From a virus: 64,000 nt of DNA. Made by a program: the position numbers and the translations under genes. The stretch lies in the IMG/VR virus record IMGVR_UViG_3300024265_000031. One strand, 5' to 3'. Positions within the stretch are counted from its first letter, which is position 1. Every line of letters begins with the position of its first letter. Below the pieces are notes generated by a model. The model did not search any database. It was not told the origin of the DNA and saw nothing but the letters and a program-made list of their open reading frames with translations. Positions 7,119 to 64,000 of this stretch are shown piece by piece.

Positions 7119-7191
7119 AGCCCGTAGTAGGATTTGAACCTACATTCTCCTATTTCGAAGATAGTTGCTGATCCAGTTTAGCTATACGGGC
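7119..7191 (-). tRNA. tRNA-Arg(UCG), no encoded CCA
   Basis: GCCCGTA/TACGGGC acceptor stem, CT-TCG-AA anticodon loop, GTAGG-TTCAAAT-CCTAC T arm. Confidence 0.85.
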
Positions 7192-7193
7192 AA

Positions 7194-7268
7194 AGTCCGT
7201 GACAGGATTCGAACCTGCATAACTTTCTCCTTAGAAGGGAGATGTTCATCCTCTTGAACTACACGGAC
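7194..7268 (-). tRNA. tRNA-Arg(UCU), no encoded CCA
   Basis: GTCCGTG/CACGGAC acceptor stem, TCTCC-CT-TCT-AA-GGAGA anticodon arm, GGTTCGAATCC T arm. Confidence 0.9.
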
Positions 7269-7274
7269 GTTAGA

Positions 7275-7349
7275 TGCGCCTGGGAGGATTTGAACCTCGC
7301 GACTCTTGGCTTAAAAGGCCACTACTCTACCAGACTGAGTTACAGGCGC
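7275..7349 (-). tRNA. tRNA-Lys(UUU), no encoded CCA
   Basis: GCGCCTG/CAGGCGC acceptor stem, TGGC-CT-TTT-AA-GCCA anticodon arm, GGTTCAAATCC T arm. Confidence 0.9.
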
Positions 7350-14980: not shown

Positions 14981-15051
14981 AGATGATGGTGGGAATTGAA
15001 CCCACATAAACTGTTTTGCAGACAGTTACCTTACCAATTGGATACACCATC
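14981..15051 (-). tRNA. tRNA-Cys(GCA), no encoded CCA
   Basis: GATGGTG/CATCATC acceptor stem, ACTGT-CT-GCA-AA-ACAGT anticodon arm, GTGGG-TTCAATT-CCCAC T arm. Confidence 0.88.
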
Positions 15052-21361: not shown

Positions 21362-22591
21362 TCAGTCTAATTCATTGGTCTTAATCATGCCGGTAACATT
21401 GCCGCGCGGAGTAAAATCATTTACGGATTCTTCTTTGGCGGATTCTACTTTTGCCATTTTTTCTGTCATGGTATCCGCGTCAATAATTTCAGGTTCGCCA
21501 TTGCGCGATTTATTGGTTTGTTTCTTTGGTTTGGTTTTTTCTACAATGGGCTTGGGTTTGTCACCATTGCCTGATAGAATCTTGCCAATTATTTCATGAC
21601 GCTTGACAATTTGACCGTTTGACGCTGTAGCAGAAGAACAAGAATCGCCGTAGAAAATGCGCATATCGGACCGCGCATTGCGCAATTGCCCAAAAAATTC
21701 AATGAGATAAAGAGTCATATTCTCACATGATTCTTTTTTCTCATTGCCTACCAGATTCGCAAGGATTGCTTCTACATGAGTCTTTTTTGAGAAACGCTTT
21801 ACACTTGCGATATCACTTTTTTCAGTGAATTCTACTGATACAATCCAGTACAATCTATCCAGTTTTTTCTTCAAATTGGCGATATCTTGCTTCGTCAATG
21901 TATGCGCAATAAACCAGTCTATTGCCTTGCGCGAGGTATAGTCAAGGTTTGCGGATTCTTCGTTCATTGACATAATAGATTGTATAACAATTGACTCAAC
22001 AACCAAAGATTTAAACGGGTTGTTTTTCAAGTTTGCTTTGTCGTTCATAAAATCCCAAACCTTATGATTCACGCAAGAATCAAGGTCTAATAATTTGTCA
22101 ACTATTTCACCGCGTTTCGCTTCTAACAGAGTCAATGGAATTCCACCGCGGTTTATATCGATGAAATATTCTACTACTTCGCTATCATCGAGAGACAATA
22201 CAACCATCATGATAACAGTGTTTAAAAATTGTTCGCGTTCGCGTTCTTGCCAATCCATAACACCATTTCCATTAACATTGTCGTCATAGTCTGTAGGGGT
22301 AAGCAACCCATCATACAAGCTTGACAACGTGCGCGTCCGTTGCTTCCCATCTACCATATTATACATGCCATTATCACGTGTGGCCAAAAATAAACCAATT
22401 GGTCTACCAGTCAAAATTGAACGAACAAAATTATCAACTATGTTTGGTTTATTCCAGTGATTTTTATCAGTTCGCTGATACGCCATAGCGGTATTAATCC
22501 TTCCCTTATTGCGTAGGGCTAGATATTCCCTGACAGTTAATTCTACCATTTCATAATTTTTAACCATTGCGTTTTTTTGTGTTTCAGTCAT
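21362..22591 (-). CDS. DUF262 (ParB/Srx-like, GmrS-type) domain protein
   Basis: YQR...W...SIL.G.PIG, VDGKQRT.TL and F.DINRGG.PLT motifs; no HNH/DUF1524 C-terminus seen. Confidence 0.8.
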   Translation of the reverse strand: MTETQKNAMVKNYEMVELTVREYLALRNKGRINTAMAYQRTDKNHWNKPNIVDNFVRSILTGRPIGLFLATRDNGMYNMVDGKQRTRTLSSLYDGLLTPTDYDDNVNGNGVMDWQEREREQFLNTVIMMVVLSLDDSEVVEYFIDINRGGIPLTLLEAKRGEIVDKLLDLDSCVNHKVWDFMNDKANLKNNPFKSLVVESIVIQSIMSMNEESANLDYTSRKAIDWFIAHTLTKQDIANLKKKLDRLYWIVSVEFTEKSDIASVKRFSKKTHVEAILANLVGNEKKESCENMTLYLIEFFGQLRNARSDMRIFYGDSCSSATASNGQIVKRHEIIGKILSGNGDKPKPIVEKTKPKKQTNKSRNGEPEIIDADTMTEKMAKVESAKEESVNDFTPRGNVTGMIKTNELD

Positions 22592-56303: not shown

Positions 56304-56777
56304 TTGAAAAAATACATCTGGTCTTTTGATTTAAGTTTGTCTAACACTGGGTTTTGTATTTGGGATCTTGATGGAAATCCTCTTCATGTTTTTAGTGTAA
56401 AAACCACAGATAAGCAAAGTCATCCCAATAGATTGCGAACCATAGGGAATTTTATATTGGGTAAAAAAGAAGCATTCCCAACAGAACTTATAGTTATAGA
56501 ATCTGGATTTACTAAATTCAATAAAAGTACACAGGCATTATTTAAAGTGTTGGGTGTTATACAATATTTGTTTTATGACTGCAAACAAATTTTTTATGCT
56601 TCCACTACAATAAAGAAGGCTGTTTGTGGGTATGGAAAAGCAACTAAGGATCAAGTGGCATATATAATATTGCAAGAATATCCTAATTTACAAATAAATA
56701 ATGATGATGAAAGTGATGCCGTGGCTATAGGCGTGTGCCATTTTTTGGAGAATAGATATGCCCAAAAATGTTTATAA
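56304..56777 (+). CDS. ruvC: RuvC-like Holliday junction resolvase
   Basis: DLSL..TG, IE, IKK...G.GKATK, DESDA.A motifs. Confidence 0.85.
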   Translation: MKKYIWSFDLSLSNTGFCIWDLDGNPLHVFSVKTTDKQSHPNRLRTIGNFILGKKEAFPTELIVIESGFTKFNKSTQALFKVLGVIQYLFYDCKQIFYASTTIKKAVCGYGKATKDQVAYIILQEYPNLQINNDDESDAVAIGVCHFLENRYAQKCL

Positions 56778-57741
56778 TGCGTTCTTCGATAAAGATATTT
56801 ATGAAAAAGTTTGTACAGAAAATAAAACTTTGCTTGAAGATTACCTTTTAGAGCTAAAACAAAATCAAAAAAGCGAAGGAACTATTTATCAATATAAACG
56901 CGATATTATGGGGTTTTTTGTTTATGCATATAGAAAATTGGATAATGCAAGTATTTTGACATTTACAAAAAAAGACTTTAGACGCTACTCATTGTATCTT
57001 CAAGATTTAGGATTATCTAATGCAAGACAGAACAGATTGCTTTCTTCTCTTAGATCAATGTTATCGTTTGCGGAAGATGAAGACGACTACGAATACGACA
57101 TAAACATAGCCAAAAAAGTAAGGGGCTTGCCTAAACAGTCAGTCAGGGAAATATTTTATCTTACAGATAATCAAATTCTAAAAATACGAGATGTTCTTAT
57201 GGAACGAAAAGAATACCAAAGAGCGACTCTTCTTATGTTGGCTTATGATTCTTCTGGTAGAAAAAATGAATTGTCTCAGGTTGAAAAACATTCCTTTTAT
57301 GATTCTAAAAAGAGTAGTACAAATAAAGTGATTGGAAAAAGAAAGAAAGTTTTTAGATTGCTTTATTTTTCTGGCACTAAAGAATGTGTTGTAAAATGGT
57401 TGGAACAACGCGGCGAAGACGATATAAATTCTTTGTGGTTCGTTAATAGTGAACGACCAACATCTAATGTTCTTTATGATTGGACGATAGAAATGAGAGA
57501 TATCTTATATGAGATTGATGGGGCAAACATTGATTTTAATCTTCACTCTATGCGTCATGCTTGTCTTCAAAATCTTTCTGATGGTTCTCATTATGTTGCT
57601 AGAGAACTTGGTATAGATGGATTTCCTATTGAGAAGTTGAAATTAATTGCTAATCACATTTCAATAGAGACGACCCAGAGTTACCTCAAAGATAATTCTA
57701 TAGACGAATTAGAAAACATGTTCAATATCAAAATTGATTAA
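56758..57741 (+). CDS. tyrosine recombinase (YomM-like)
   Basis: SAM-like N-terminus; GRKNE, GK..K, HSMRH, NH..I.TT..Y catalytic residues. Confidence 0.9.
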   Translation: MPKNVYNAFFDKDIYEKVCTENKTLLEDYLLELKQNQKSEGTIYQYKRDIMGFFVYAYRKLDNASILTFTKKDFRRYSLYLQDLGLSNARQNRLLSSLRSMLSFAEDEDDYEYDINIAKKVRGLPKQSVREIFYLTDNQILKIRDVLMERKEYQRATLLMLAYDSSGRKNELSQVEKHSFYDSKKSSTNKVIGKRKKVFRLLYFSGTKECVVKWLEQRGEDDINSLWFVNSERPTSNVLYDWTIEMRDILYEIDGANIDFNLHSMRHACLQNLSDGSHYVARELGIDGFPIEKLKLIANHISIETTQSYLKDNSIDELENMFNIKID

Positions 57742-57773: not shown

Positions 57774-60700
57774 ATGGCTGAGAAAGTAAGTGCTCCTGAC
57801 AAATATCAGATTTTAGTAGAAGCGGTTCTTAAAACAACAACGGCTGGAAAAAGCAATGTTCAGACTGGATTAAATAAACTTTCTAAAGAATTAGAACTCA
57901 CAATACATAAAGTTAAAATTAGTGGCAAAGGTCTTGCACATATTAAATCCCAATTGAAAAGCGCTTTATCTGATTTTGATGTTGATTTAGAAAAAATTGA
58001 AAAGGGGGGCGAAGCTGCTGGAAAAGCTCTTGGGATAAATGTTGGAAAAGGATACCAAAAAGCCGCTGCTGGAATTAATAAAATAGTAATTGAAAATGTT
58101 GATGATATTAGAAAATATTATGAGGGATTGGGCTGGCAAGAAATTTCTGCAAAAAAAATATTTGATGATGAAGAAACAAAAAAATATAATGTTACTCTTA
58201 AAAAGATAGTTGGGAATGAACAACAAATTCTAAGAACTAGAGTTGATATTAATAAAAATGGTAAACATTATATTAAACTTTTGGATGAATCGTCAAGATA
58301 TACAAAAAGTATTGCAGATCAAACTAAAACTTGGTCAACTAGACTTGAAGATATAAGAACTAGAAATGCTGATGTTGTTAAATCTAGTAGTGCAGTTAGA
58401 GATAAAATTAGAGAAATTGGAATCAGTATGCAAAAGTTTACTGGTGCAACTGCTGAAAGAGATAAAATAACTCAACAATTTAGAGAATTAAATTTAGAAG
58501 TTAATAAAACAAAAACAGCATTGGCCAGTGCTCACAAACAAGGCATGACTTTTACATCAATGTTGAGTCTTGCACTCAAGAAAATTGTGCTTTGGGGAAT
58601 CGGTACTGCTGTAGTTTATGGAACAATTAGACAAATACAGAAAGCAGTTGGATATGTAAAAGAATTAAATAAAGAGATGACTAATATCCAAATTGTTTCT
58701 GGTGCTTCTGTGCATGAAATAAAGAATCTCGCGCAAGAGTATAACAATTTGGCTATTGCTCTTGGTGTAACAACTTTAGAAGTTACTAAGGGAAGTCTTG
58801 AATGGATACGACAAGGTAAGACAGCAAAAGAAACCGCTGAGTTGTTGCGTGCAAGCACTATGATGGCAACTTTAGGCAATCTTGATCAAGCAGAATCAAC
58901 AGAATATTTAACATCCATTATTAATGGGTATGATTTAGCTTTAGAAGAAGTTATGCCCACCATTGATAAACTTATTGCTCTAGATAATGCTTACGCTACA
59001 AGTGTTGGTGAAATAGCTGCTGCTTTGCGTAGGGCCGCCAATTCGGCGCGTCTTATTCAAATTCCACTTGAAAATGTGGCAGCAATGATTACTGTTGTTT
59101 CTGCCGTGACTAGAAAAAGTGCGGAAAGTATTGGTGAAAGTTTTAAAACAATCTTTTCACGTATGAGAGATGTAAAACTCAATAAAGATATTGATGAAGC
59201 AGGGGAAAGTATATCTGATGTAGAAAAAATACTTGCTAGGTTTGGTATTGAACTTCGAGATAGTAGTCATCAATTTAGAAATATGAATGATGTTCTTGAT
59301 GAAACAAGAGCAAAATGGTTAGAACTAGCTGAAGCAGGAAGGACTGTTGATCAATCTACGATTGCAAAAGCATTTGCTGGTGTTAGACAGGCTGAAAACT
59401 TTATTGCGTTAATGAACAATCAAGAAATGTACATTGAAGCTTTAAAAATTGAAGCAGAAGCACTAGGCACAACAGAAGAAAGATATGAAATTTATGTCAA
59501 TAGTGTTGAAGCTGCTTCCAATCGCCTTATAGCCACTTGGGAAAAATTAGTTGCAAATACTTTTACAGATGAATTATTGAAAAATGTTCTTGGTTTAGGC
59601 GAAGGTATAATAAAATTTGCAGATGCAGTGGGAATTCTTAATTTAGCTTTTGTTGCCCTTGGCATTTATTTAACAGCCAAATTTTCAATTATATTGCCAT
59701 TTGTTGGACAGCAATTAGCTGGACTTTCAGCCGCCTTAAGCATTACAACTGTAGCGGCTGAAGGATTAATGGTTGCGTTATCTGGAGTTGCAATAGTTTT
59801 GGGCATTATTGCCGTTATAGCCCTTGGTAAAATATATAGTAATTGGATAAATGGCGCTGAAATAGCCCGCGAAAAAACTATTGAGTTAAAAAATGAAATT
59901 GATTCTTTAACTCGTTCAATTAAAAAACTTGAAGAAGAGCGAAATTCCGTTAGCTTATTGGCACAAGAATTTGTAGATTTACAACAAGATACTAAAAAAT
60001 CAGCAGATGAGCAAGAAAGATACGTTGAGGTTCAAAATGAACTAAAAGATTTAATTCCTGGTCTTCAAGGATATTATAATGATCTTGGCAATTTTCGTAT
60101 TACTGAAATTGCAGATTTAAAAACCATTATTGAACTGAGAAAAGAAGAATTAAGTTTAATAAAAGAGACGCTTAAAGAAAAAAAAATAGAGGGATTTGAA
60201 GCAGAATTAGAACTTTATGAGGAGCTTATAAAAAAACAAACTAGGCTTCAGGCCCTATCTGATATGGCTGAAATAAGAGTTGCAGATCCTTGGACAGGAT
60301 TGCCAACAACTGATGTTAGTGCCGTTAATGCTGAAAAAGCCAGAAAAGATCTTAAGTCAGTAAGTGATGAAGTAGAGCTTTTTGTAAATAGAACTAAACA
60401 AGAATTTCTTTCTTTAGATGTTGCTACACAAAATCTTTTCTTAGATATGGCTGAAAATTTGGGACGTTCTGATTTGGCTAATGAATTGCGTAAACTTGTG
60501 GGATCTTTTGATGTAATTGCCCAAAGAGCTATGCGTGCATTGCCATTTAATCAACTTGGCGAATTTTTTGATGAATTAAATTTTGTTTTAAGTGAAACTT
60601 TAGATGAACTTATTGACTTCGATAAACAAATATTTTCCATTGTTGATACTATGGAAGAATTTGGCAAAATTAGTGCAGAACAAGTAAAAATACTTGCTGG

Positions 60701-62021
60701 AATATTATCTCCTGCAGATTATGATGCTATAGTTTCTTGGGATGAATTGAATAATGCCTACAAGATAAACATAGGGTTGCTGAAAAGCATATCTATAGCA
60801 AATGTTGATACCGCAATCACTATGGCATATATGGCAGATGCCAGCGATGAAGTGATAGAATCATTAAGGGGATATTTAGAACTTCTTGCCACTGGCGATC
60901 CATTTAAAAAATTTGGAGACAATCTCAAAGAAGTAGAACAAGCAGAAAAAGACTACCAAAAAGCCTTGGAAGACGCAGAAAAAGAACGAGAAAAAGCATA
61001 TCAAGATCTCCTAAAAGCCACAATTTCAATGATCAAACAACGCAAAGAAGAAGAACGCGATGCTTTAAAAGATCAACTTGATGGATATAAAAAAATCATT
61101 GATGCTAGAAAACAAATCATTGATCAAGAAAAGAAAGAACGTGATCATCTAAGGGCAGTTAAAGATCAACAAAAAGAAATTACAAACATTGAAGAAGAAT
61201 TAATGGAACTTCAGTTTGATACCAGCGAAGAAGGAATGAAACGCAGGTTGGAGCTTGAAGAACAATTATTCGAAGAAAAGCGCGACCTTGAAGATGAAGA
61301 ATATGATCATAGTGTTGATAAACAAAAGAGTGCCTTAGACGAAGAATATGATAGGTTTAAGCACATTATTGATAAAAAACTTGATGTCATACAAGCATAT
61401 TTACAACAATCTGGAACCATAGCCATGCAAGCCATTACCATGATTGAAAATAGAAGTGACACATTCTATCAATCATTATTGGAATGGAATAGAATTTATG
61501 GTAGTGGCATAGATAATGATATTGTGGGTGCTTGGAATAGGGCATTTATGGCTGCAAGTCAATATGCAAGTGTTGTTGGGGCTCAACAAACACTCTCTGC
61601 ACTTACTGGCACTGGATATACTGGGTCTTCATGGGGCGCAACGGAAATTGCAAGATTGCAAGCGTTGGGAATGGAATCTAGGGAATATCGCCAAGATCCT
61701 TCTATGATTAGAGGATATCATGAAGGTGGTTTTGTTGGCGGTCTTCCAAAGATAAGATCAAATGAAGAATATGCTAAATTAATGACGGGTGAATTCGTAT
61801 CTAGACCAGATCAAATATCCAATTTTATGAATAAAACATTGCCAAACATTGTTGCTAACACTGGCGGTGATGGCGAAATAACTATACATAATGAATTCAA
61901 TGTTGCTGGAAACTTAGATAAGTCAGTTATTCCTATAATTGATAACAAGATAGCGGAATCTCTCAATAGAATAATGAAAAATCGTGGAATTCGCCGTAAC
62001 GCAAACGCATACAGTATTTAA
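57774..62021 (+). CDS. tail tape measure protein
   Basis: 1415 aa; TP901-type core (IDKL.A.DN.YATS...IGESFKTIFSR), coiled coils, YHEGG C-terminus. Confidence 0.9.
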   Translation: MAEKVSAPDKYQILVEAVLKTTTAGKSNVQTGLNKLSKELELTIHKVKISGKGLAHIKSQLKSALSDFDVDLEKIEKGGEAAGKALGINVGKGYQKAAAGINKIVIENVDDIRKYYEGLGWQEISAKKIFDDEETKKYNVTLKKIVGNEQQILRTRVDINKNGKHYIKLLDESSRYTKSIADQTKTWSTRLEDIRTRNADVVKSSSAVRDKIREIGISMQKFTGATAERDKITQQFRELNLEVNKTKTALASAHKQGMTFTSMLSLALKKIVLWGIGTAVVYGTIRQIQKAVGYVKELNKEMTNIQIVSGASVHEIKNLAQEYNNLAIALGVTTLEVTKGSLEWIRQGKTAKETAELLRASTMMATLGNLDQAESTEYLTSIINGYDLALEEVMPTIDKLIALDNAYATSVGEIAAALRRAANSARLIQIPLENVAAMITVVSAVTRKSAESIGESFKTIFSRMRDVKLNKDIDEAGESISDVEKILARFGIELRDSSHQFRNMNDVLDETRAKWLELAEAGRTVDQSTIAKAFAGVRQAENFIALMNNQEMYIEALKIEAEALGTTEERYEIYVNSVEAASNRLIATWEKLVANTFTDELLKNVLGLGEGIIKFADAVGILNLAFVALGIYLTAKFSIILPFVGQQLAGLSAALSITTVAAEGLMVALSGVAIVLGIIAVIALGKIYSNWINGAEIAREKTIELKNEIDSLTRSIKKLEEERNSVSLLAQEFVDLQQDTKKSADEQERYVEVQNELKDLIPGLQGYYNDLGNFRITEIADLKTIIELRKEELSLIKETLKEKKIEGFEAELELYEELIKKQTRLQALSDMAEIRVADPWTGLPTTDVSAVNAEKARKDLKSVSDEVELFVNRTKQEFLSLDVATQNLFLDMAENLGRSDLANELRKLVGSFDVIAQRAMRALPFNQLGEFFDELNFVLSETLDELIDFDKQIFSIVDTMEEFGKISAEQVKILAGILSPADYDAIVSWDELNNAYKINIGLLKSISIANVDTAITMAYMADASDEVIESLRGYLELLATGDPFKKFGDNLKEVEQAEKDYQKALEDAEKEREKAYQDLLKATISMIKQRKEEERDALKDQLDGYKKIIDARKQIIDQEKKERDHLRAVKDQQKEITNIEEELMELQFDTSEEGMKRRLELEEQLFEEKRDLEDEEYDHSVDKQKSALDEEYDRFKHIIDKKLDVIQAYLQQSGTIAMQAITMIENRSDTFYQSLLEWNRIYGSGIDNDIVGAWNRAFMAASQYASVVGAQQTLSALTGTGYTGSSWGATEIARLQALGMESREYRQDPSMIRGYHEGGFVGGLPKIRSNEEYAKLMTGEFVSRPDQISNFMNKTLPNIVANTGGDGEITIHNEFNVAGNLDKSVIPIIDNKIAESLNRIMKNRGIRRNANAYSI

Positions 62022-62027
62022 CTCAGA

Positions 62028-62060
62028 TAAAAGGGGGATTTTATTTAATCCCCCTTATTA
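62028..62060 (+). terminator. terminator hairpin after the tape measure gene, overlapping a junction palindrome
   Basis: AAGGGGGATT/AATCCCCCTT. Confidence 0.65.
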
Positions 62061-62075
62061 AATCAGGAGGTAACC

Positions 62076-62320
62076 GTCAACTACCGCTCCTTTGTGGAGA
62101 GACTTATAAAAGTCCGCGTTGACCAGCCTAAGTTCTTTGAGAACTACGTTATCAAGAAAGTTTAAGAACGTACGTTGGAATGACCGAGCCAGTTCCAACC
62201 ACTACAACCAAAAAGTTAAACATGTTGAGGGTATAAACAAGTGCTTTTTGGAAACACTGATTGATAACATTGGCGAGGCTCACTTTACCCTCGAAAGAGG
62301 AGATTACAGTAAACCATAAA
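62076..62320 (+). ncRNA. omegaRNA (HEARO) scaffold
   Basis: GTCAAC...GTTGACCAGCCTAAG, CTACGTT and ACATTGGCGAGG conserved blocks upstream of iscB; 3' end approximate. Confidence 0.85.
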
Positions 62321-62329
62321 AGGTAAAAT

Positions 62330-63610
62330 ATGCAAAGAGTATTTGTTTTAGATAGTAATAGAAAACCTCTTGTTCCTTGTCATCCGGCAAGGGCCAGACA
62401 GTTGATGAAGAATGGTAGAGCAAGTGTATTTCGTAAATATCCATTTACGATCATTTTGAATGACAGACTACAAGAAGAATCGACAATGTCTCCAATGAGA
62501 ATCAAGATTGATCCTGGCAGCAGGACAACGGGAATAGCAATTGTACAATTTGGGGGAAAAGTTTTGTGGGTGGCAGAAATAAATCATAGGGGGCAACAAA
62601 TTAAGTTTGGTCTTGAAAGAAGACGAAATCGGCGTCGCAATAGAAGATCTAATTTAAGATATCGTCCTGAAAGATTTAATAATCGTAGTAGATCAAAAAA
62701 ATGGTTGCCCCCAAGTTTGATGAGTAGGGTTCATAATGTTTTTACTTGGACATTTCGTTTATGTCGATATGCTCCAATACAAGCAATTTCGATGGAATTA
62801 ATTCGTTTTGATACCCAAAAAATGCAAAATCCAGAAATTTTAGGAGTTCAATATCAACAAGGTAAACTACAAGGGTATGAAGTAAGAGAATATTTGCTTG
62901 AAAAATGGGGAAGAAAATGTGCTTATTGTAACTCCAAGAATATTCCTTTAGAGATTGAACATATCATTCCTAGGGGCAGGGGAGGAAGCGATAGAGTGGA
63001 TAATTTGACTATTGCTTGTCGATCCTGTAATCTTGCCAAGGGTACACAAACGGCAAAAGAATTTGGATTTTCTAAGATACAAATAAAAGCACGAAAATCT
63101 CTAAGAGATGCTGCAGTTATGAATGCTACTAGATGGAAATTGTGGCAAACATTGAATGAATTTAGTTTGCCTTTAGAAATTGGTACTGGGGGAAGAACAA
63201 AATATAATCGTTTTCTTCAAGGATTGCCTAAGACACATTGGATTGATGCGATATGTGTTGGTAAAACTGGTGCACGCGTATATGTTCCTACAAAAATGAC
63301 ACCTTTAAGTATTAAAGCAAAGCGACATGGGAAAAGACAAATGTGCCTAATGAATAAGTATGGATTTCCAAGAACAAAAGCTAAAAAATCGTCAGTTGTT
63401 CACGGATTTAAGACAAATGATTTAGTTGTGGCAACAATACCTTTTGGAAAGAGATCGGGAACATATATCGGCAGGGTAGCGATTCGTTCAAGAGGATATT
63501 TTCGTGTTGGAAAAATTGATAGTATTCCTTATCAGCATTGTCAAATTTTACAAATGAGTGATGGTTATGAATATGTGGAATCTAAACAATCATTATTGTC
63601 GTTAAAATAA
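62330..63610 (+). CDS. iscB: RNA-guided endonuclease IscB
   Basis: PLVP (PLMP domain), IDPG RuvC-I, Arg-rich bridge helix, ELIRFD RuvC-II, CAYC..EHI.PR..GGS...NL..AC..CN HNH, HWIDA RuvC-III. Confidence 0.95.
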   Translation: MQRVFVLDSNRKPLVPCHPARARQLMKNGRASVFRKYPFTIILNDRLQEESTMSPMRIKIDPGSRTTGIAIVQFGGKVLWVAEINHRGQQIKFGLERRRNRRRNRRSNLRYRPERFNNRSRSKKWLPPSLMSRVHNVFTWTFRLCRYAPIQAISMELIRFDTQKMQNPEILGVQYQQGKLQGYEVREYLLEKWGRKCAYCNSKNIPLEIEHIIPRGRGGSDRVDNLTIACRSCNLAKGTQTAKEFGFSKIQIKARKSLRDAAVMNATRWKLWQTLNEFSLPLEIGTGGRTKYNRFLQGLPKTHWIDAICVGKTGARVYVPTKMTPLSIKAKRHGKRQMCLMNKYGFPRTKAKKSSVVHGFKTNDLVVATIPFGKRSGTYIGRVAIRSRGYFRVGKIDSIPYQHCQILQMSDGYEYVESKQSLLSLK

Positions 63611-63629
63611 AATTTGATTGGAGGGTTTT

Positions 63630-64000
63630 ATGGCATTTTTTGGAAGAAGATTTATTTGGGATGGAACTTCCAGTGATCTATATGGATTATATGTTACTAA
63701 TTTTAAAACTGGTTTAGTAAAGTCTGATGCAGGATCGAATGTTACACCAATTAGAACATTACCCTATCGCAGATCAAAACAATATTTCTTTGGTGTTACA
63801 CAAGATGAAATATTAGAAGTTGATTTGGAATTAACAAGTGCTGGTCGAGTTGATGGTCATATGAGAAGCCTTATGAAAAGGTGGTTATTTGGCAGTATTG
63901 TTGAAAAGAAGTTGCAAATTTTGCAATGCGATATTGATGAAGTTTATTTTAACGGAATTTTGACCAACGTTAAAGATATATATGTGGGCAACATTCATCA
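63630..64000 (+). CDS. distal tail protein (YomH-like), truncated by window edge
   Basis: MAFFGRRFIWDG.SS..YGL...KRWLFG...KKLQI; follows tape measure. Confidence 0.7.
   Translation, partial: MAFFGRRFIWDGTSSDLYGLYVTNFKTGLVKSDAGSNVTPIRTLPYRRSKQYFFGVTQDEILEVDLELTSAGRVDGHMRSLMKRWLFGSIVEKKLQILQCDIDEVYFNGILTNVKDIYVGNIH

Follow-up and report, generated by a model that had tools for sequence, protein, structure and literature searches.

Background

ISC transposons, which belong to the IS200/IS605 superfamily and carry the gene for the nuclease IscB, have the termini 5'-GTCA...ATGG-3', and empty sites have proven their targets to be N/ATGA and GT/GR, where the slash marks the point of insertion (Kapitonov, Makarova and Koonin 2016, PMC4810608). 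The omegaRNA side of such an element is the transposon right end (RE) and the target-adjacent motif (TAM) abuts the other end, the TAM of GstIscB from Geobacillus stearothermophilus being TTCAT, or ATGAA on the iscB strand (Meers et al. 2023, bioRxiv 10.1101/2023.03.14.532601). We describe here an IscB element in a 64,000-nucleotide stretch of viral DNA (hereafter the window) from the record IMGVR_UViG_3300024265_000031. The element is intact and 1.55 kb long (window 62076-63629, + strand), consists of an omegaRNA and iscB, and sits in a phage of ~150 kb between the Shine-Dalgarno sequence (SD) and the start codon of the gene for the distal tail protein (Dit), an essential tail gene.

The window element resembles described ISC transposons (PMC4810608; e.g. 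ISC2-1_KR, inserted at GT/GG, and the N/ATGA elements) in its single iscB, the conserved structured region upstream of that gene, the 5'-GTCA, the ATGG at its 3' junction and the absence of both a target duplication and a tnpA of its own. Those transposons share a subterminal hairpin on the 3' side that is bound by the Y1 transposase, whereas the window copy has no such hairpin and is single, located in a phage and placed exactly at a start codon, with an SD in its last 10 nt. As a transposon the window element thus lacks one defining feature, the left-end (LE) hairpin. Start codons are not mentioned in the paper on ISC transposons (PMC4810608).

GstIscB (Meers et al. 2023, bioRxiv 10.1101/2023.03.14.532601) is alike in having its omegaRNA upstream of iscB, with the transposon end as its limit, a guide taken from the flank, a TAM abutting the other end and the orientation of the upstream gene, and it cuts the empty donor joint. 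In that system excision is carried out by TnpA and IscB brings the element back on the sister chromosome, whereas excision of the window copy by TnpA is unlikely, its carrier is a phage and its predicted TAM ends in G. The IsrB nickases DtIsrB (NTGA) and BbIsrB (NTGG) have an NTGR-type TAM and a C-terminal TAM-interacting domain in which one residue sets base 4, but are without the HNH domain and only nick (Hirano et al. 2022, PMC9581776). Among phages, the free-standing homing endonuclease genes Seg and Mob of the T-even group, a case of intronless homing (PMC13565253), are nuclease genes between conserved phage genes and spread by the cutting and repair copying that is proposed here for the window element; they recognise their sites by protein alone, whereas the window element would use a guide RNA and a 4-base motif, and its distinction of self from non-self would be set by the insertion itself, as in intron homing but unlike Seg and Mob. 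IStrons, which combine a group I intron with an IS200/IS605 element, likewise make their own insertion harmless to the interrupted gene, although they restore the gene by RNA splicing while the window element restores translation initiation only, by means of an SD.

An IscB element between the ribosome-binding site and the start codon of Dit

The insertion lies downstream of the gene for the tape-measure protein (TMP; 1415 aa, 57774-62021, + strand; Pfam PhageMin_Tail, 3.7e-27), which ends with the stop codon TAA at 62019-62021. On the same strand follow a 9-bp G+C-rich hairpin (62031-62056; AAGGGGGAT, loop TTTATTTA, ATCCCCCTT), the bases ATTAAATC, the sequence AGGAGG (62065-62070) and the spacer TAACC (62071-62075), after which the element begins. 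Its omegaRNA scaffold starts with GTCAAC and extends up to the start of iscB (62076-62329, +), the iscB gene encodes 426 aa without interruption (62330-63610, +; stop codon 63608-63610), and the 3' tail, which is the left end in transposon terms (63611-63629, +), includes GGAGGG (63620-63625) and then TTTT (63626-63629). The six bases ATGGCA (63630-63635, +) hold the Dit start codon, as placed by alignment of Dit, together with the predicted TAM ATGG, and would form the right half of the empty target. The Dit gene (63630-64000, +; Pfam DUF6558, a phage tail protein N-terminal domain) is truncated by the end of the window, its complete product having 263 aa (P0001) and the full gene being present on the contigs L005 and L006; only 19 nt separate the iscB stop from the Dit ATG. 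The predicted guide of 16 nt (AAATCAGGAGGTAACC, 62060-62075, +) lies directly 5' of the first position of the HEARO model, is identical to the left half of the empty target and includes the orphaned ancestral SD AGGAGG and the spacer TAACC. A preliminary description of this stretch, made from its letters, had placed an IscB element between the ribosome-binding site (RBS) and the ATG of Dit, and this observation was confirmed, the letters being as given there apart from a shift of one base (AGGAGG at 62065-62070, not 62066-71).

By every feature that was tested, the predicted nuclease and RNA are ordinary members of the IscB and HEARO families. The match to HEARO, the IscB omegaRNA (Rfam RF02033), scored 131.1 bits against a gathering score of 83, covered model positions 1-211 over window 62076-62288, so that model position 1 falls on 62076, and ended 42 nt before the iscB ATG on the same strand. 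In the protein, the RRXRR domain matched over residues 4-178 (Pfam, 1.3e-68) and an HNH domain, which separates IscB from IsrB, over residues 197-239 (Pfam, 9.8e-12), where it is inserted in RuvC. The RuvC residues D61, E156, H303 and D306 and the HNH residues H211 and N234 were all present, in columns that are invariant among 15 homologues; the PDB matches were TbaIscB (3e-48) and OgeuIscB (2e-27), and the C-terminal region predicted to interact with the TAM holds R386 and R388. The termini were those of ISC and IS200/IS605 elements, with GTCAAC at 62076 (the GTCA being the right end in transposon terms), ATGG at 63630 and no direct repeat in the flanks. One HEARO match and one iscB were found in the 64-kb window, so the multicopy character of ISC and IS200/IS605 transposons was not seen.

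Comparison with insertion-free Dit loci

Relatives of Dit were collected from metagenome contigs (2) and, by a profile search, from viral loci (33), the closest having 48% identity, and the junctions of the 17 closest by tblastn E-value (28-48% identity) were inspected. None of the 17 had any insert between TMP and Dit. All shared a single design, in which the TMP stop is followed, usually after a G+C-rich hairpin and a few bases, by a purine run resembling an SD and 3-7 nt lie between this run and the start codon; the gap from hairpin to ATG was 13-25 nt. Most of these insertion-free relatives have a G+C-rich hairpin at this place, and on this comparison the TMP-Dit hairpin of the window is an ancestral phage feature outside the element. 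Excision of 62076-63629 in silico gave GGAGGTAACC followed directly by ATG, the counterpart in L007 being GGAGGTATAC before its ATG, and the window without the element aligned with the relatives from the C-terminus of TMP across the hairpin into Dit. The Dit proteins of L007 and L008 aligned with the window Dit from the same Met, and the Dit of L100 likewise opens ATGGCATTTT. The start codons of the Dit relatives were nearly all ATG, with one TTG and no GTG. The element therefore lies between the ancestral SD and the Dit ATG, as had been proposed, with a reconstructed empty site that aligns with the insertion-free loci, and its removal restores a start of the kind present in 17/17 of them.

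The replacement RBS that had been attributed to the element was also found. It is the SD GGAGGG, located 4 nt before the Dit ATG and within the last 10 nt of the element, with a spacing similar to that of the ancestral SD (4-5 nt). In such DNA, 2.6% of positions are preceded by a 5-mer SD that ends 3-11 nt away, and the window has one at both junctions; this two-junction arrangement is more than chance.

Start codons and SDs in related IscB loci

The survey covered 80 viral and 80 bacterial loci with an IscB of 46-60% identity, together with the two closest known (67-69%). The 5' ends of the omegaRNA were taken from Rfam hits and an nhmmer profile, a regular expression having been dropped as unreliable. 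At most of the loci a strong hairpin in two tiers, which is the transposon left end, came after iscB, and past this hairpin one of the motifs ATGA, ATGG, GTGA or GTGG was found in 43/55 distinct viral and 60/74 distinct bacterial loci (103/129 together), usually at a distance of ~5-20 nt and most often at 9-10 nt in the viral set. The motif opened an open reading frame (ORF) of at least 50 aa in 22/55 viral loci (40%) and in 32/60 bacterial loci for which a motif was called (53%), compared with 18-19% for random positions, and with ATGA and ATGG only, in the viral set, an ORF was opened in 18/26. About half of both the viral and the bacterial copies thus end exactly at an ORF start, and this base-exact coincidence with start codons is accounted for by the TAM.

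A 5-mer SD ending 3-11 nt before the omegaRNA was present at 17/50 distinct viral junctions (34%) against the background of 2.6%, while the bacterial set, which is mostly Chloroflexota and cyanobacteria, had 2/39 (5%). The lower bacterial figure may come from sparse use of SDs by Chloroflexota and cyanobacteria, or the compact genomes of phages may filter insertions more strongly. Of the copies at ORF starts, 12/54 had an SD within the final 3-11 nt of the element, compared with 3/49 elsewhere, which makes the replacement SD a recurrent feature and not a universal one; tails similar to that of the window were seen in L183 (...GGAGGTTTT before ATGA) and L033 (...GGAGGTTTTG before ATGG). The rule that emerges from the survey is that an ATGA- or ATGG-type TAM goes with frequent parking at gene starts.

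Several loci showed further junction features. Two related phage contigs (L003:4264-4283 and L004:1102-1121; IMG/VR 3300033143_003234 and 3300033148_005523) carry the same start-codon IscB insertion, with GAGG-TTTTGAG before the element and ATGAATGC after it, and have 10-bp tandem duplications of ATGAATGCAA on the TAM side in L003 and of AGGTTTTGAG on the guide side in L004, which could be repair scars or target-altering changes. In L069 (2245-2268) the first 12 nt of the element (GTCAACAACCCA) occur twice in tandem at the 5' junction, right after GAGG. The flank 5' of the omegaRNA in L010 (2215-2259) resembles the 5' half of a tRNA gene (GGAGCGTAACTCAGTTGGTTAGAGTG...), four other tRNA genes are present at that locus, and the element may have been inserted in or beside a tRNA gene.

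The predicted TAM and a covarying arginine

The preliminary description had taken the guide from the DNA 5' of the omegaRNA and placed the TAM 3' of the target, in agreement with Meers et al. (2023) and Kapitonov et al. (2016, PMC4810608). Its choice of ATGG as the TAM of the window IscB is credible by comparison, this motif flanking 22 of the 103 relatives for which a TAM was called (8 viral and 14 bacterial) and G at base 4 covarying with R388. At the position two residues after a conserved Arg (R386 in the window), Ser or Thr was found when base 4 of the TAM was A, and mostly Arg when it was G. The association was first noticed in 42 viral loci and then extended to 102 viral and bacterial loci, with counts of 19 for Arg with G, 4 for Arg with A, 9 for another residue with G and 70 for another residue with A (Fisher 2e-10). 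In a tree test, 10 independent pairs differed at the R388 position, and the TAM changed in the same direction in 7.0 and in the opposite direction in 0.3 (median p 0.03). The sister elements L022 (RTRG with ATGG) and L026 (RATG with ATGA) differ in this way, and so do L088, the closest relative of the window element, which has Thr and ATGA, and the window copy with R388 (codon at 63491-63493). Across these loci a second C-terminal position (L340 in the window) also covaried with the junction motif, R/L going with A and N/G with G at base 1.

In IsrB, A4 is read by Q326 and the change Q326R allows G as well, and there are natural TAMs of the forms NTG and NTGG (PMC9581776). Comparison of the C-terminal domain with solved IscB and IsrB structures gave no significant sequence alignment and R388 was not mapped onto DtIsrB Q326, so that the likeness of the two residues is an analogy backed by the covariation. 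The survey suggests the rule that one C-terminal residue, Ser/Thr or Arg, predicts A or G at TAM base 4, and such a rule could serve to predict or re-engineer the TAMs of IscB proteins.

Boundaries of the element

The left boundary was set by the RNA model and by homology and the right boundary by homology to within two bases. Insertion at N/ATGG, under which the empty TMP-Dit junction is expected to read AGGAGGTAACC and then ATGGCA (a form incompatible with GT/GG is ...TAACCATGGCA), was favoured over insertion at GT/GG, which on the comparisons above we consider rather unlikely. Under the GT/GG mode, as in ISC2-1_KR of Ktedonobacter, the termini would be CA...AT (62078-63631), the Dit start would originally have been a GTG at the same place, the TAM of the empty site would be GTGG, and that site would read AGGAGGTAACCGT before GGCA (empty allele ...TAACCGTGGCA, with GTGGCA after the left half). 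This mode has been proven with empty sites for elements whose occupied junctions are 5'-GTCA...ATGG-3', as in the window (PMC4810608), two Ktedonobacter loci (L156, L161) carry ATGG and the same Arg, and the reading frame and SD spacing would be kept equally well. The absence of GTG among the start codons of the Dit relatives and the opening ATGGCATTTT of L100 argue against it, as does the covariation of the L340 position with motif base 1 (A or G), which is expected only if the target includes this base; in the Ktedonobacter elements the residue at this position is Val, however, so the L340 argument is not decisive.

An earlier end of the element at ~63613, beside TTGA (63614-63617), would make GGAGGG-TTTT-ATG the native RBS of Dit and the upstream AGGAGG a coincidence, and predicts an empty allele ...TAACCTTGATTGGAGGGTTTTATG. 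TTGA resembles the NTGA TAMs of IsrB, and the iscB stop and the ATG are close together. Such an empty site would have two SDs and 16 bases beyond any of the 17 relatives with their 13-25 nt from hairpin to ATG, the alignment of the left flank with L007 extends as far as the ATG, Arg388 predicts G and not A at TAM base 4, and the tail of related elements extends to the ATG of the next gene, which together make this end point highly improbable.

Predicted guide, self-sparing and expression

The 16-nt guide was unique in the window, the next best matches carrying 3 mismatches. In the occupied genome the 16 nt that match the guide are followed by GTCA and not by ATGG, so that the insertion destroys its own predicted recognition site and the phage would therefore spare itself. 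A promoter match of 10/12 inside iscB (63180-63208) was not significant. The TMP-Dit hairpin fell below the terminator criteria of the scan, and in the ancestral arrangement the Dit ATG is only 19 nt past this hairpin, from which it follows that Dit has always been transcribed by read-through. The guide, omegaRNA, iscB and Dit probably share a late tail transcript, with TMP the upstream gene and likely transcript source. IscB elements are biased to the orientation of the upstream gene (10.1101/2023.03.14.532601), and the arrangement in the window agrees with this.

Loss of the left-end hairpin and composition of iscB

The left-end hairpin was kept in 61/66 viral relatives, unlike in the window copy. 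The last 100 bases of the element folded no better than shuffled sequences on either strand (z -0.4), compared with z values of -2.7 to -2.8 in three relatives, and the best 40-nt hairpin downstream of the DGYxY motif had -5.7 kcal/mol against a median of -17, the second weakest of 66, in a fold that lies inside Dit. Of the subterminal hairpins at both ends on which a Y1 transposase depends, the omegaRNA end keeps a stem and the iscB-distal end has none. The transposases of IS200/IS605 elements act on such hairpins (PMC4810608; 10.1101/2023.03.14.532601), and TnpA should therefore no longer excise or move the window copy, which leaves homing by cutting and copying as the only plausible way for it to spread.

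A check of 10 ORFs of 115-157 aa in the window, which covers 64 of ~150 kb, gave no TnpA. A gene from the Nodularia phage (gp086) was tried as a TnpA probe, but proved to be a C-terminal fragment of TnpB and the tblastn result was uninformative. The absence of tnpA had been taken in the preliminary description to fit spread by homing; it is not diagnostic, as tnpA lies near only ~1.5% of iscB genes (10.1101/2023.03.14.532601), and a stronger argument is the missing left-end hairpin.

The iscB gene had a G+C content of 35.7%, with 22% at third codon positions (GC3), compared with 34% for the phage and 40-49% for the nearest IscB relatives, and the G+C content of the iscB ORF correlated with that of its flanks across 77 viral loci (r = 0.86). 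This match in composition suggests a long residence in the phage. A flawless nuclease gene and omegaRNA beside a decayed transposase site look like the outcome of selection for the nuclease, a pattern that appears to fit homing or the killing of competitors better than a dead passenger.

Proposed mechanism and alternative explanations

We think it probable that the window holds a non-autonomous ISC-type element of the IS200/IS605 superfamily that inserted at N/ATGG, the start of Dit, and split the SD from the ATG; the homing step that follows is one that we infer. A late tail-operon transcript would read through the TMP hairpin and yield an omegaRNA with the guide AAAUCAGGAGGUAACC. IscB with this RNA would recognise only the uninterrupted site, where the guide match is followed by ATGG, and the occupied genome would be spared. 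An element-free genome in the same cell, most likely that of a co-infecting sibling phage, would be cut, and repair from the element-bearing copy would copy the element in, or the rival genome might simply be destroyed. The replacement SD would keep Dit translated and the insertion would be tolerated. Without a hairpin for TnpA the remaining routes would be homing or plain vertical inheritance, and from the arrangement of guide, site and nuclease the cutting of sibling phages and homing are plausible. A wider version of this reading, which we hold to be possible but less likely than not, is that IscB elements with ATGA or ATGG TAMs use start codons as landing pads, a subset of them with a portable SD for compact phage genomes, and that the window copy has shed the TnpA route, retuned its TAM reader (Arg388, predicting NTGG) to the ATGG of Dit and now survives solely by RNA-guided homing or gene drive from one co-infecting phage to another.

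Several results weigh against homing and the predicted site. No close relative of the phage, and with it no close empty allele, was found in the phage collection (megablast), viral contigs (Dit query), a protein database, metagenome contigs or bacterial genomes; by blastn the phage collection matched only in the HNH part of a Nodularia phage IscB, and the only match for Dit in the protein database was the window's own. A search for an empty allele, which the preliminary description had proposed as a check, thus gave distant relatives that agree with the architecture, but these are not true empty alleles. The element is present in all three assemblies of the phage, and therefore possibly no target is left in nature. 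Between TMP and the guide no promoter-like site exceeded shuffled expectation, and some of the transcripts may be terminated at the upstream hairpin. The 2.6% background for SDs was taken over all positions, so part of the enrichment would arise without targeting if insertions survived only in the short gaps between phage genes. The TAM call was the first ATGA, ATGG, GTGA or GTGG motif after the left-end hairpin, a crude rule, the tree test took in 103 rows with the window among them, and Arg was absent in 3 viral and 6 bacterial loci with ATGG or GTGG, several of the exceptions looking like miscalls of the first-motif rule.

The same anatomy could belong to an element that landed once, is immobile, has lost its targets and is kept only as imprecise deletion would remove the RBS or start of Dit, with IscB idle today. 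The lost left-end hairpin, the single copy in the window, its presence in all assemblies and the failure of our searches to find any element above 69% protein identity are in line with such a passenger, but a residence long enough for the composition to adapt to the phage has left a 426-aa ORF without defect, complete catalytic residues and an omegaRNA of 131 bits while the hairpin decayed, which points to selection on nuclease and RNA and makes an idle passenger unlikely in our view. Alternatively the phage may keep IscB to destroy co-infecting relatives that are without the insertion, copying not being required. The anatomy would be identical to that expected of homing, the target is an essential and conserved translation start, and competitor killing of this kind has been described for phage homing endonucleases (review PMC13565253). 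The present data do not separate such a weapon from homing, but flanks homologous enough for a guide match would be expected to allow repair from the element-bearing genome, and we regard killing by itself as improbable. We therefore retain insertion at the Dit start followed by homing as the preferred explanation.

Other features of the window and related phages

A cultured cyanophage, Nodularia phage vB_NspS-kac68v162 (MK605246: 62191-65680), carries an IscB (gp085) that is annotated as 'HNH endonuclease' and lies right after a TnpB that is paired with an IS607 serine transposase. The gene that follows gp085, the 'transposase' gp086, is the TnpB fragment mentioned above and not a Y1 TnpA. 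Directly upstream of TMP in the window, past holin and lipase genes, are a RuvC-like ORF (157 aa) and a weak tyrosine-recombinase-like ORF (327 aa) in the region 56304-57741. A GmrSD-like ORF is located at 21362-22591 (- strand) and four tRNA genes at 7119-7349 and 14981-15051. One assembly of the same phage (L006:1-904, JGI contig Ga0114923_10000023; 150,292 bp) starts inside iscB at window ~62707, while a second record of 150,297 bp has the whole gene, as though a circular or permuted assembly had been cut open at different places.

Conclusions

That a transposon might home between co-infecting phages is an idea already published (review PMC13565253), as is the logic of cutting the empty site (10.1101/2023.03.14.532601), whereas no publication connecting IscB insertions with start codons or ribosome-binding sites came up in a literature search. 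What the window contributes is a clean case with good controls from a tail operon, together with the missing transposase hairpin and a covariation of Arg with G by which the nuclease is tied to its own site. Cas9 descends from IscB, whose natural role is the subject of continuing work. In the published model, IscB restores a transposon after excision by TnpA on bacterial chromosomes. The window has the same machinery in a phage, on an essential start codon and with a compensating RBS, but no hairpin of the kind that TnpA requires. If active, the element would be a case of RNA-guided homing between viruses and would also account for the survival of such elements in genomes that have hardly any DNA to spare.

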